Source of the DNA: Escherichia coli O157:H7
GTDB lineage: Bacteria > Pseudomonadota > Gammaproteobacteria > Enterobacterales > Enterobacteriaceae
Assembly: GCF_013167455.1 (NCBI RefSeq)
Contig: NZ_CP038328.1
DNA length: 64,000 nt
Direction: 5' to 3' (one strand)
Shown here: positions 48,282 to 53,201 of the stretch, in pieces
How positions within the stretch are numbered: position 1 is the stretch's first letter
Layout: every line of letters starts with the position of its first letter
Made by a program: the position numbers and the translations under genes
Notes under the pieces: model-generated
The model's database searches: none
The model's input: the letters and a program-made list of their open reading frames with translations, nothing else
What the model was told of the DNA's origin: nothing

Positions 48282-49697
48282 ATGAAAATCAAAACTCGCT
48301 TCGCGCCAAGCCCAACAGGCTATCTGCACGTTGGCGGCGCGCGTACTGCTCTTTACTCCTGGCTTTTTGCACGTAATCACGGCGGTGAGTTCGTGCTGCG
48401 TATTGAAGACACCGATCTTGAGCGTTCCACGCCGGAAGCTATCGAAGCCATTATGGATGGCATGAACTGGCTGAGCCTGGAGTGGGATGAAGGTCCGTAC
48501 TTCCAGACCAAACGTTTTGATCGCTACAACGCGGTGATCGATCAGATGCTGGAAGAGGGCACAGCTTATAAATGCTATTGCTCTAAAGAGCGCCTGGAAG
48601 CGCTGCGCGAAGAGCAAATGGCGAAAGGTGAGAAGCCGCGTTATGACGGTCGCTGCCGCCACAGTCATGAGCATCACGCTGATGATGAGCCGTGTGTCGT
48701 ACGTTTTGCTAACCCGCAGGAAGGTTCTGTTGTTTTTGACGATCAGATCCGTGGTCCGATCGAGTTCAGCAACCAGGAACTGGACGATCTTATTATCCGC
48801 CGTACCGATGGTTCCCCAACCTATAACTTCTGTGTGGTTGTCGATGACTGGGATATGGAAATCACCCACGTTATCCGTGGCGAAGACCATATCAACAACA
48901 CGCCACGCCAGATCAACATTCTTAAAGCCCTGAAAGCGCCGGTACCGGTTTACGCGCACGTTTCTATGATCAACGGCGATGACGGCAAAAAACTGTCCAA
49001 ACGTCACGGGGCAGTCAGCGTAATGCAGTATCGTGATGACGGTTATTTGCCAGAAGCACTGCTGAACTATCTGGTGCGTCTGGGCTGGTCCCACGGCGAT
49101 CAGGAAATCTTCACTCGTGAAGAGATGATCAAATACTTCACTTTGAATGCCGTCAGCAAATCTGCCAGTGCGTTCAACACCGACAAGCTGCTGTGGCTGA
49201 ACCATCACTACATTAACGCGCTGCCGCCGGAGTATGTTGCTACTCACTTACAGTGGCACATTGAGCAGGAAAATATCGATACCCGTAACGGCCCGCAGCT
49301 GGCTGATCTGGTGAAACTGCTGGGCGAACGCTGCAAGACGCTGAAAGAGATGGCACAGAGCTGCCGTTATTTCTACGAAGATTTTGCTGAGTTCGATGCC
49401 GACGCCGCGAAAAAACATCTGCGTCCGGTAGCGCGTCAGCCGCTGGAAGTGGTTCGTGACAAACTGGCCGCGATTACTGACTGGACAGCTGAAAACGTTC
49501 ATCACGCTATTCAGGCGACGGCGGATGAGCTGGAAGTGGGTATGGGTAAAGTTGGTATGCCGCTGCGTGTCGCCGTAACCGGTGCGGGGCAGTCTCCGGC
49601 GCTGGACGTTACCGTTCACGCGATCGGTAAGACCCGCAGTATCGAGCGTATCAACAAAGCGCTGGCTTTTATTGCGGAACGCGAAAATCAGCAGTAA
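48282..49697 (+). CDS. gltX: glutamyl-tRNA synthetase
   Basis: 471-aa ORF with HIGH-class motif ([12 protein letters not shown]) and KLSKR (KMSKS-like). The antisense 366-aa ORF 48147..49247 is a shadow. Confidence 0.97.
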
Positions 49698-50240
49698 TTA
49701 GCGCATAAAAGATAAACGGCAGGAGAGATACCCCTGCCGTTTTTTATTTATCCGGTGCGCCGTAAAACCCCGTCCTTCAGGGCGGGGATATAAGGCGCGG
49801 TTTTCCACCTGACCAGGTGTTTGCTGTTGTTCAATGTATTGGCGGATGACGGATATTGGCGCACCTCCGCAGCTACTGGCAAAATAGCCAGGACTCCACA
49901 AAACGCCTTTGTAGTAATACCTGACTGCAATATCTGGTCGATCTCGTCGCAGTAACCTACCCGATACGCCTTTGAGGCTGTTTACCAGACTGGATATCGC
50001 CAGTTTGGGAGGATAGTTAGTTAACAAATGGACGTGATCTGGTTCGCCATCCATTTCAACCAGTTCAGCTTCAAAATCAGCACATACATTTGAAAAGTAA
50101 GTGCGTAGTTTTTCTGTCGCGTCATAGTCAAAAATCTGACGTCGGTATCTGGTGACAAAGAACAGATGAACATGCATCAGGAAAACACAATGCCTTCCCC
50201 GTCGGATATCGGTTTCTTTATTCATAGACCAAAGTATCAT
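49698..50240 (-). CDS. tnpA: IS200/IS605-family Y1 (HUH) transposase TnpA, with unusual C-terminal extension
   Basis: ORF contains DIRRGRHCVFLMHVHLFFVTRYRRQIF...DHVHLL (HuH motif)...SPGYFASSCGG...IRQYIEQQQ; ORF continues ~40 codons beyond the usual end, through the gltX terminator. Start may be ATG 50225 (MNKETD...). Confidence 0.75.
   Translation of the reverse strand: MILWSMNKETDIRRGRHCVFLMHVHLFFVTRYRRQIFDYDATEKLRTYFSNVCADFEAELVEMDGEPDHVHLLTNYPPKLAISSLVNSLKGVSGRLLRRDRPDIAVRYYYKGVLWSPGYFASSCGGAPISVIRQYIEQQQTPGQVENRALYPRPEGRGFTAHRINKKRQGYLSCRLSFMR
49718..49747 (+). terminator. gltX rho-independent terminator
   Basis: CGGCAGG-AGAGATACC-CCTGCCG followed by TTTTTT, 20 nt after gltX stop. Confidence 0.75.
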
Positions 50241-50247
50241 TTGGCCT

Positions 50248-50583
50248 GTGAAACGACTACAGGCATTTAAATTCCAGTTAAGACCAGGTGGTCAACAGGA
50301 GCGTGAAATGAGGCGCTTCGCAGGCGCATGTCGTTTCGTTTTCAATCGTGCTCTGGCGCTTCAGAATGAGAATCATGAGGCCGGTAATAAATACATCCCT
50401 TACGGGAAAATGGCTTCCTGGCTGGTTGAGTGGAAAAACGCCACTGAAACGCAATGGCTTAAAGATGCCCCGTCACAGCCATTGCAACAGTCACTGAAAG
50501 AGCTTGAGCGGGCTTACAAAAACTTCTTCCGGAAGCGGGCTGCTTTTCCCCGATTCAAAAAGCGGGGACAGAATGATGCATTC
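50248..50583 (+). pseudogene. tnpB: tnpB (RNA-guided nuclease of IS200/IS605 family), N-terminal fragment interrupted by IS629
   Basis: GTG-start ORF (M)KRLQAFKFQLRPGGQQEREMRRFAGACRFVFNRALA..., typical TnpB N-terminus; terminates at the first triplet (TGA) of the IS629 left end. Confidence 0.8.
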
Positions 50584-50637
50584 TGAACCGCCCCGGGAAT
50601 CCTGGAGACTAAACTCCCTGAGAAAGAGGTAAACAGG

Positions 50638-50964
50638 ATGACTAAAAATACACGTTTTTCCCCCGAGGTCCGTCAACGAGCAGTTCGTATGGTTCTGGAA
50701 AGTCAGGGCGAATATGACTCACAATGGGCGGCAATTTGTTCCATTGCCCCAAAGATTGGCTGTACACCAGAGACTCTGCGTGTGTGGGTTCGTCAGCATG
50801 AGCGGGATACCGGGAGTGGTGATGGTGGACTCACCACCGCTGAACGTCAGCGTCTGAAAGAGCTGGAACGTGAAAATCGTGAACTGCGCCGCAGTAACGA
50901 TATCCTTCGCCAGGCTTCCGCTTATTTTGCGAAGGCGGAGTTCGACCGCCTCTGGAAAAAATAA
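50638..50964 (+). CDS. IS629 OrfA (HTH / leucine-zipper transposase N-terminal protein)
   Basis: 108-aa [60 protein letters not shown]... Confidence 0.9.
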
Positions 50965-51851
50965 TGCCGCTGCTGGATAAGCTGCGTGAGCAGTACGGGG
51001 TCGGACCGGTATGCAGTGAACTGCATATTGCCCCGTCAACGTATTACCACTGTCAGCAACAGCGACATCATCCTGATAAACGCAGTGCCCGTGCTCAGCG
51101 CGATGACTGGCTGAAGAGAGAGATACAGCGCGTATACGATGAAAATCATCAGGTGTACGGTGTGCGTAAAGTCTGGCGCCAGTTGTTACGCGAAGGTATC
51201 AGGGTGGCCAGATGTACAGTGGCGCGCCTCATGGCGGTTATGGGACTTGCCGGTGTTCTCCGGGGTAAAAAGGTCCGTACTACCGTCAGCCGGAAAGCCG
51301 TTTCCGCAGGCGACCGCGTAAACCGTCAGTTCGTGGCAGAACGTCCTGACCAGCTGTGGGTGGCTGATTTTACTTACGTCAGCACATGGCAGGGCTTCGT
51401 CTATGTGGCGTTCATCATTGATGTGTTTGCCGGATGTATCGTGGGGTGGCGAGTCTCATCGTCTATGGAAACGACATTCGTGCTGGATGCACTGGAGCAG
51501 GCGTTGTGGGCCCGTCGGCCGTCCGGCACAGTCCATCACAGTGATAAAGGTTCTCAGTATATATCACTGGCCTATACGGAGCGACTAAAAGAAGCAAAAC
51601 TGCTGGCATCAACAGGGAGTACAGGTGACTCGTATGACAACGCGATGGCGGAGAGCATCAATGGTCTTTACAAAGCGGAGGTAATACACCGTAAGAGCTG
51701 GAAAAACCGTGCAGAAGTGGAACTGGCCACACTCACGTGGGTGGACTGGTATAACAATCGACGATTGCTGGGAAGGCTGGGTCATATCCCTCCGGCAGAA
51801 GCAGAAAAAGCTTATTATGCTTCCATCAGAAACGATGATCTGGCAGCCTGA
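50964..51851 (+). CDS. IS629 OrfB (DDE integrase-type catalytic domain), expressed as OrfAB by -1 frameshift
   Basis: 295-aa ORF in -1 frame relative to orfA with DDE-region sequence (WVADFTYV...HSDKGSQY...NAMAESINGLYKAE); A-rich slippery stretch GGAAAAAATAATG at the overlap. Confidence 0.9.
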   Translation: MPLLDKLREQYGVGPVCSELHIAPSTYYHCQQQRHHPDKRSARAQRDDWLKREIQRVYDENHQVYGVRKVWRQLLREGIRVARCTVARLMAVMGLAGVLRGKKVRTTVSRKAVSAGDRVNRQFVAERPDQLWVADFTYVSTWQGFVYVAFIIDVFAGCIVGWRVSSSMETTFVLDALEQALWARRPSGTVHHSDKGSQYISLAYTERLKEAKLLASTGSTGDSYDNAMAESINGLYKAEVIHRKSWKNRAEVELATLTWVDWYNNRRLLGRLGHIPPAEAEKAYYASIRNDDLAA

Positions 51852-51896
51852 GTTCACAGATAAAACACTCTCCAGGAAAACCGGGGCGGTTCATTC

Positions 51897-52769
51897 CGCT
51901 ACCCGCAGGGCGTTAAGCTCGATCAGGAAAACAGCCGTATTTTTCTGCCGAAACTTGGCTGGATGCGCTACCTGAACAGCCGTCAGGTCACGGGTGTTGT
52001 GAAAAATGTCACTGTCAGCCAGTCCTGCGGTAAGTGGTACATCAGTATTCAGACAGAAAGTGAAGTATCAACTCCGGTTCACCCTTCAGCATCAATGGTC
52101 GGACTGGATGCTGGCGTGGCTAAACTCGCCACGCTGTCAGATGGCACAGTCTTTGAGCCTGTAAACAGTTTTCAGAAAAACCAGAAGAAGTTGGCGAGAC
52201 TTCAGCGACAGTTAAGCCGCAAGGTCAAATTCAGCAATAACTGGCAGAAGCAGAAACGCAAAATACAGCGACTGCATTCCTGTACCGCAAATATCCGCAG
52301 GGACTACCTTCACAAAGTCACAACGACCGTCAGCAAAAACCACGCAATGATAGTCATTGAGGATTTGAAGGTCAGCAACATGTCAAAGTCAGCAGCGGGT
52401 ACGGTCAGCCAGCCGGGGCGCAATGTCCGGGCAAAATCAGGTTTAAACCGTTCGATACTGGATCAGGGCTGGTATGAAATGCGCCGCCAGCTTGAGTACA
52501 AGCAGCTCTGGCGTGGCGGTCAGGTACTGGCTGTTCCGCCAGCGTACACAAGCCAGCGTTGCGCGTGCTGTGGTCATACAGCGAAAGAAAACCGCCTGTC
52601 ACAAAGTAAATTCAGATGCCAGGTATGTGGATATACAGCGAACGCCGATGTAAACGGCGCTCGTAACATTTTAGCGGCGGGGCACGCCGTTCTTGCCTGT
52701 GGAGAGATGGTGCAGTCAGGCCGCTCGTTGAAGCAGGAACCCACCGAAATGATTCAGGCGACAGCCTGA
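51897..52769 (+). pseudogene. tnpB: tnpB C-terminal fragment (RuvC-like nuclease and zinc-finger portion)
   Basis: In frame with N-terminal fragment once IS629 plus one TTC copy are removed (about 402 aa reconstructed); contains GLDAG (RuvC-I Asp), IVIEDLKV (RuvC-II Glu), CACCGH...[18 protein letters not shown] (Zn finger and RuvC-III). Confidence 0.8.
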
Positions 52770-52808
52770 ACGTAGCAGGGATCCTCGTCATTCAGGGCGT
52801 GGAGGATG

Positions 52809-53201
52809 TCAAGCTGATTCATCTATGTCGAGACGAGCAAGGAAATTACGAATTCCTTCGCGTGACAAAAATTGCGCAACTTTTTCCTGCTCACTGTGAG
52901 TCATGTTGTCTATTGCACTGATGATTTGCCGATAAGCAGGAGTGCGAATCCCCGGTGCGTATTCGGCAAGGGGTTCTTCGGCTTCCAGAAGCATCGGTGT
53001 GTTATGGAAGGCTGGCGTGTTCTGAATAAACTCGCAAACTTGCGTATCGACCAGAATAAGTCTGGCACGACCGCCTTTCACGCCGGGAAATTTTTCCGTT
53101 TTCCAGCCTTTTTCTCTGATCCAACGGTTAACAGTTTGTTTAGCCACACCGAGGCATTCAGCCAGTTCTTCGGTGGTCATTTTATTGCGTAATCTTTTCA
53201 T
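52809..53201 (-). CDS. yfeD: HTH DNA-binding protein YfeD
   Basis: 130-aa ORF MKRLRNKMTTEELAECLGVAKQTVNRWIREKGW...; paralogous to adjacent yfeC. Confidence 0.85.
   Translation of the reverse strand: MKRLRNKMTTEELAECLGVAKQTVNRWIREKGWKTEKFPGVKGGRARLILVDTQVCEFIQNTPAFHNTPMLLEAEEPLAEYAPGIRTPAYRQIISAIDNMTHSEQEKVAQFLSREGIRNFLARLDIDESA

Follow-up and report, generated by a model that had tools for sequence, protein, structure and literature searches.

A probable stop-loss tnpA in the IS609 copy between gltX and yfeD of Escherichia coli O157:H7

Elements of the IS608 type transpose as single DNA strands in a "peel and paste" mechanism beside a tetranucleotide. ISHp608 (IS608) of Helicobacter pylori (PDB 2a6m, 2vhg) resembles IS609 in having imperfect subterminal hairpins at both ends and in inserting 3' of a tetranucleotide, but its target is TTAC, whereas that of IS609 is TTAT. 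IS608 carries tnpA and tnpB in the same direction and has its left-end hairpin 19 nt from the tip; in the IS609 copy described here the two genes are divergent and the distance is 16 nt. The right end of IS608 reportedly also finishes in TCAA 10 nt past the hairpin. The TnpA proteins of the two elements align over residues 16-145 (E = 4e-19), and the tyrosine helix GGAP..QYIE(N/Q)Q is conserved between them. By analogy, the IS609 copy probably works, or once worked, as IS608-type elements do.

The copy lies in a 64,000-nucleotide stretch of E. coli O157:H7 DNA (contig NZ_CP038328.1 of assembly GCF_013167455.1), called the window below. It shares with IS609 of E. coli its ends, the TTAT target, the divergent tnpA/tnpB layout and about 98% nucleotide identity over 1748 bp. 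With respect to IS609 with the 143-aa reference TnpA, it differs in having CAG at codon 144, a 180-aa open reading frame, five substitutions (V6M, K7N, V27F, H39Y and I74T) and a split tnpB. Ordinary stop-loss pseudogenisation offers a second comparison: a single-base stop loss, lesions in sister copies and a second IS inside the element are common to both, but the IS609 stop-loss allele is unusually widespread, being the majority allele in E. coli and present at several sites. Literature searches on IS609 found surveys only, and no account of the stop-loss allele.

The tnpA reading frame and its conserved core

The features of the gltX-tnpA region are as follows.

48282..49697, plus strand: gltX (glutamate--tRNA ligase) coding sequence, stop TAA at 49695-49697 (open reading frame list and RefSeq annotation of the identical O157:H7 locus)
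49698..50240, minus strand: tnpA open reading frame of 180 aa, stop TAA at 49700-49698 (open reading frame list)
49812..50240, minus strand: tnpA core, codons 1-143, Y1 HUH transposase (Pfam, NCBIfam, PDB and protein alignments, reference sequence)
49809..49811, minus strand: tnpA codon 144, CAG (Gln), TAG in the reference (alignments with TAG copies and outgroups)
49698..49808, minus strand: read-out extension after codon 144 (open reading frame list, codon bookkeeping against the 49752 boundary)

Positions 49550-50300 are 100% identical to E. coli O157:H7 strains PV15-279 and Z869. With gltX at 48282..49697 and the tnpA frame, whose product ends in ...IRQYIEQQQTPGQVENRALYPRPEGRGFTAHRINKKRQGYLSCRLSFMR*, at 49698..50240, the two stop codons are directly adjacent: the gltX TAA (49695-49697) abuts the complement of the tnpA stop (TTA, 49698-49700), and together they form the palindrome TAATTA (49695-49700). 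This adjacency had been noticed in the original prediction, which was made from the sequence alone and which also held that the tnpA frame overruns its expected end by about 40 codons and crosses the gltX terminator hairpin. The overrun is real, as the Y1 domain stops near residue 140 of 180, but its exact size is 37 codons (144-180); the hairpin (49714-49742) does lie inside the frame.

The Pfam domain Y1_Tnp (PF01797) covers residues 18-139 of TnpA (134 bits) and the NCBIfam model transpos_IS200 (NF033573) residues 13-138 (137.6 bits, with a cut-off of 55), and solved TnpA structures (133-159 aa) align to residues 11-145 only. The HUH motif (H69-V-H71) and Y135 are present, all in invariant columns of the protein alignment. 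In the PDB alignment, Y135 (within QYIEQQ) stands opposite residue 127 of IS608 TnpA, which we take to be the catalytic tyrosine. Two of the five positions substituted with respect to the reference, V27 and I74, are nearly invariant columns. With its Y1 HUH transposase carrying both HUH and Tyr, subterminal hairpins, insertion 3' of a fixed motif, lack of terminal inverted repeats and of a target duplication, and accessory tnpB, the element belongs to the IS200/IS605 family. It is nearly identical, from end to end, to copies that RefSeq and UniProt call IS609, which identifies it as IS609. An intact TnpA would have a stop at codon 144 directly after ...QQQTPG; CAG is found there, at 49809-49811.

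Element ends and the shared terminator

The boundaries of the element and the adjoining host features were placed as follows.

49752..52812, no strand: IS609, whole element including IS629 (comparison of filled and empty sites)
49748..49751, plus strand: TTAT target tetranucleotide, directly 5' of the left end (copy alignment, empty site)
49752..49808, plus strand: IS609 left end, 57 nt (comparison of filled and empty sites, seven other copies, fold)
49768-49787, plus strand: left-end subterminal hairpin CCCCGTCC-TTCA-GGGCGGGG, 16 nt in from the tip (fold)
52783..52812, plus strand: IS609 right end (empty-site comparison, sequence, fold)
49714..49751, no strand: terminator common to convergent gltX and yfeD in the uninterrupted locus (folds, terminator scan, empty site)
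52809..53201, minus strand: yfeD (open reading frame identical to the empty-site translation; one protein accession for filled and empty loci)

In the many E. coli genomes without the insertion, the match to the window ends at 49751. The empty site L004 reads ...CCTGCCGTTTTTTATTTAT|GCTGATTCATCT, and its right half recurs in the window at 52813; these two observations together delimit the element as 49752..52812. At the L004 junction (...TTTTTTATTTAT|GCTGATTC), TTTAT is followed by GCTGATTC, and comparison of filled and empty sites reveals no target duplication. After taking out a 1310-bp IS3-family insert, the length of IS609 is 1748 bp, and it can be aligned over positions 1-1748 with seven other copies, which come from five other sites and from gltX in strain TR01, at 97.7-98.1% identity. 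All seven begin at the same base, with CCGGTGCGCC right after TTAT; the tetranucleotide stands before CCGGTGCGCC at each of the six aligned E. coli insertion sites, and in Morganella too. This shows the left end to be complete and fixes its tip at 49752. The original prediction had offered three explanations for the long frame: a lost stop, a truncated left end, or an element end positioned differently than assumed. The end-to-end alignment with seven copies and the empty site argue for full length over truncation and the empty site fixes the junction, so that a complete and placed left end removes the last two.

The left-end hairpin had likewise been proposed as a candidate, at about 49767-49790; it is borne out by the fold, with the span corrected to 49768-49787, and is nested in a longer imperfect palindrome (49757-49798). 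An imperfect hairpin at the right end, CCTCGTCA-TTCA-GGGCGTGG (52783-52802), is homologous to it, and 10 nt follow, of which the final TCAA is 52809-52812. In the reference element, the left end sits downstream of the tnpA stop. A search of Rfam gave no match on the left end or the terminator, returning only an ALIL pseudoknot and a sub-threshold RAGATH-18 match elsewhere in the element.

IS609 is inserted 3' of TTAT, within the T-tract of the terminator shared by gltX and yfeD. The terminator hairpin (49714-49742) has arms at 49714-49723 and 49733-49742 and a T-tract running to 49751, and the region folds on both strands (z-scores of -5.2 and -6.4); a terminator scan finds a minus-strand site at 49742->49714, its tail being ATCTTTTATG. 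The terminator reads identically in the empty site L004 and stays intact upstream of IS609, while, seen from yfeD, it is now on the far side of the element. The original yfeD stop, a TAA inside the TTAT target, was split off by the insertion. A TGA, complementary to part of the right-end TCAA, takes its place in frame, and the codon before it has changed from GCA to GCT (both Ala). Because IS609 supplies this stop and the Ala change is silent, YfeD is the same 130-aa protein whether the site is filled or empty.

Codon 144 and the frame beyond it

The changed base of codon 144 is 49811, where the plus strand has G in the window and A in TAG copies (CTG vs CTA). TAG occupies this codon in three E. 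coli copies: L007, L016 (the gltX site of TR01) and L017 (ATCC 8739). The first of these, at the yoaG/yeaQ site, carries a RefSeq-annotated intact 143-aa TnpA, and the sole difference thereabouts is CTA for CTG. TAG is also found in outgroup elements of Salmonella enterica (L010, 84% identity) and Morganella morganii (L013, 78% identity). The NCBI protein "IS200/IS605-like element IS609 family transposase" is 143 aa long, ending at G143, and aligned homologues from Salmonella, Photorhabdus, Morganella, Proteus, Klebsiella, Yersinia and Xenorhabdus finish in ...QQQTPG/S/D; homologues from outside E. coli are mostly 138, 143 or 146 aa among the matches listed. Since other E. coli copies, the Salmonella and Morganella outgroups and the 143-aa reference all have or imply TAG, this is the ancestral state. 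From these alignments, the tnpA of the window has evidently lost its native stop by one transition, TAG to CAG, as the first of the three original explanations (a lost stop in a decaying copy) had it. Reference TnpA proteins sharing the long C-terminus, named beforehand as the observation that would speak against this, were not found: the reference is 143 aa. In the PV15-279 locus, RefSeq calls tnpA a pseudogene "missing C-terminus" that covers exactly codons 1-142. Ordinary pseudogene-type decay of a known, annotated IS is the best explanation as a whole, with a probability of roughly 0.9.

Deamination at a Dcm (CCWGG) hotspot, which might have made codon 144 change repeatedly, was rejected, as the CCAGG nearby does not include the mutated base. 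A palindrome, CACCT-GACC-AGGTG (49806-49819, plus strand), surrounds the lost stop with 49811 in its loop, and is flagged on the plus strand by the terminator scan.

From codon 144 to the element tip the frame meets no stop, and ribosomes would read on into the 57-nt left end and its subterminal hairpin, a structure that TnpA is expected to recognise as DNA. Beyond it the frame would cross the 49752/49751 boundary and the hairpin of the host terminator before closing at its first stop codon, which abuts that of gltX. Codons 145-163 (VENRALYPRPEGRGFTAHR), 19 in number, are the left end and its hairpin read as protein, and the 17 codons 164-180 (INKKRQGYLSCRLSFMR) are flanking DNA: the T-tract, the terminator hairpin and the spacer before gltX. 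In composition-matched shuffles, 19 stop-free codons inside the element have a probability of ~0.57, and 36 further stop-free codons after the lost stop a probability of ~0.2. Open-frame length was accordingly dismissed as a sign of selection, and so was a conserved read-through extension, the outgroup frame being closed after 12 codons in Salmonella and shifted in Morganella. A run expected about one time in five and outgroup frames that are closed or shifted leave nothing that points to a selected extension. The excised circle, in which right and left ends are joined, would close the tnpA frame after six codons, a curiosity without support.

Spread of the CAG allele and decay of IS609 copies

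Of 5426 complete E. coli genomes, 4328 carry the IS609 left end, with a median of two copies and roughly 8,700 left ends in all. Searches of the complete E. coli genomes with 61-base probes that have the polymorphic base in the middle gave 3844 records with the exact CAG 61-mer and 588 with the exact TAG 61-mer. The sites with a CAG copy include gltX, ydcL/ydcO, TetR-gene/ytfB, DUF3251-gene and alpha-glucosidase/yidH. CAG is therefore the majority allele of E. coli IS609, present at five or more insertion sites, and the copy in the window shares its stop loss with others. Because CAG is the majority allele, other copies share the first 20 residues of the extension (to ...FTAHRI); they do not share the last 16-17, which the flank encodes. 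Long TnpA forms of E. coli have QVENRALYPRPEGRGFTAHRI in common and then wholly unlike tails, for total lengths of 155-254 aa. The exact 180-aa protein occurs on at least 1000 contigs and is UniProt A0A0H3JHC3_ECO57, "IS609 transposase".

Both alleles have been found at one and the same site, namely gltX (O157 CAG, TR01 TAG) and alpha-glucosidase/yidH (L005 CAG, L017 TAG), which indicates that the history is not a simple single event. Among eight E. coli copies, pairwise differences are 28-45 substitutions, the relationships are star-like and the variable sites mosaic. CAG probably had a single origin in E. coli IS609, from which transposition and/or gene conversion carried it to other copies. 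Its majority at five or more sites would mean either that stop-less elements still moved, with the long TnpA tolerated or TnpA supplied in trans, or that gene conversion distributed the allele. At the gltX site, O157 and TR01 differ by 0.75-0.95% in the flanks and by 2.2% in the IS; as judged from these distances, the two copies may be an old shared insertion that has been evolving unconstrained. The gltX and FlxA-like proteins of TR01, a strain labelled O157:H7, also differ from those of typical O157:H7. With flanks that are ~1% off and an IS609 that is 2.2% off, TR01 is either atypical for O157:H7 at the gltX locus or has recombined there.

The remaining parts of the element in the window are as follows.

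50248..50583, plus strand: tnpB (insQ), 5' part, cut by IS629 (Pfam HTH_OrfB_IS605, reconstruction)
50584..51893, plus strand: IS3-family insertion sequence of 1310 bp, taken as IS629 (boundaries, duplication, Pfam HTH_Tnp_1 and rve)
51897..52769, plus strand: tnpB, 3' part, with OrfB_IS605 and Cas12f1-like TNB domains (Pfam, reconstruction)

The insert, which we presume to be IS629 from its end sequence TGAACCGCCCCGGG and from what is known of O157:H7, comprises orfA and orfB, has a 3-bp TTC target duplication (50581-50583 and 51894-51896) and contains the Rfam ALIL frameshift pseudoknot at 50919-51035. Without it, the element is 1748 bp long, differs by one base from the PV15-279 copy and encodes a 402-aa TnpB, as it does intact in PV15-279; absence of the insert from this otherwise identical O157:H7 locus marks it as a strain-level polymorphism. 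A RAGATH-18 RNA match at the 3' end of tnpB (52696-52739, plus strand) is below threshold (29.5 bits, gathering score 44.9, E = 0.011) and lies where the scaffold of the TnpB guide (omega) RNA would be expected.

Lesions in tnpA are common among the sister copies: Y76* in L006, L96* in L005, a frameshift in L002 and in L017, and H23Q and R133C in TR01. Most of the eight copies (L001-L003, L005-L007, L016 and L017) have a tnpA with stop loss, a nonsense change, a frameshift or a missense change in the active-site region, and all eight have an intact annotated tnpB (insQ, 402 aa). From these annotations and alignments, the decay is evidently asymmetric in resident copies, with tnpA decaying and tnpB kept. 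The copy in the window is probably a non-autonomous relic, as indicated by its stop loss, its substitutions at two nearly invariant positions and its split tnpB. Loss of function of its TnpA is likewise probable; the HUH and Tyr residues are intact. In other E. coli, an IS609-like remnant was noted in the ybcM/yedF region (L008, 2333-2872, and L009); its tnpA matches the window from 49869 onward only and diverges past about residue 124, without the QYIEQQ tyrosine helix, and RefSeq still annotates an intact 179-aa transposase there (WP_032143406.1).

Decay of this kind was weighed against other readings. If the left end were truncated or lay elsewhere, with the native 3' end and stop of tnpA deleted or outside the element, both the lack of an in-frame stop inside the element and the RefSeq wording on the C-terminus would follow. 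This is hardly credible for an element that aligns over all 1748 bp with seven copies at ~98% identity, that has the same start base after TTAT as every other copy and a junction fixed by the empty site, and in which the native stop position is present with one base changed. The fact that the only difference is a single base might suggest a sequencing or assembly error; the chance of this is practically negligible, given the identical 751-bp stretch in independent complete O157:H7 genomes, the exact CAG 61-mer in so many records and the recurrence of the 180-aa protein on contigs and in UniProt.

It is distinctly unlikely that E. coli IS609 uses the long read-out form as its functional TnpA, having dispensed with a stop of its own and taken on a tail that depends on the insertion site. 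The numbers of CAG and TAG records, the presence of CAG at five or more sites (most simply seen as movement after mutation), the intact catalytic residues and the IS608 TnpA chain (155 aa), which runs 18 residues past the end of the alignment, would all fit such a protein. Sampled relatives in other genera, however, all stop at codon 144, the outgroup frame past it is not conserved and the tails are arbitrary flank sequence. Three of the five CAG copies translated also carry a nonsense change or frameshift, and none of 758 new insertions in K-12 mutation-accumulation lines was of IS609 (PMC5009759). Gene conversion, which the mosaic variable sites suggest, can moreover spread CAG without transposition. 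A related idea, that CAG rode on a transposition-competent master copy whose TnpA tolerates tails from the insertion site, or that the stop loss is a built-in down-regulation, appears unlikely; such a master copy would explain the CAG majority and its presence at five or more sites. Two terminator-like hairpins precede the first in-frame stop (49700-49698) on the minus strand, that of the left end, which is followed by TTTTAC (UUUUAC in RNA), and then that of gltX/yfeD. If the down-regulation idea were true, tnpA transcripts would stop short at one of these two places, the left-end hairpin or the host terminator (base of the hairpin at 49714), as non-stop mRNAs, and their products would presumably be tagged by tmRNA and degraded.

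Ordinary decay by stop loss therefore remains the preferred reading, and it has little importance beyond annotation, where RefSeq already flags tnpA as a pseudogene. The 180-aa "IS609 transposase" of O157:H7 (UniProt A0A0H3JHC3) is a read-out product in which the gltX terminator encodes the last 17 residues and the transposon end the 19 before them, so that 180 aa should not be taken as the standard length of the family. With a tail that changes from one insertion site to the next, a single IS gives rise to many spurious protein clusters, 155-254 aa in length. In a small way, the census of IS609 copies illustrates a known pattern, in which resident IS200/IS605 copies lose tnpA and keep tnpB.
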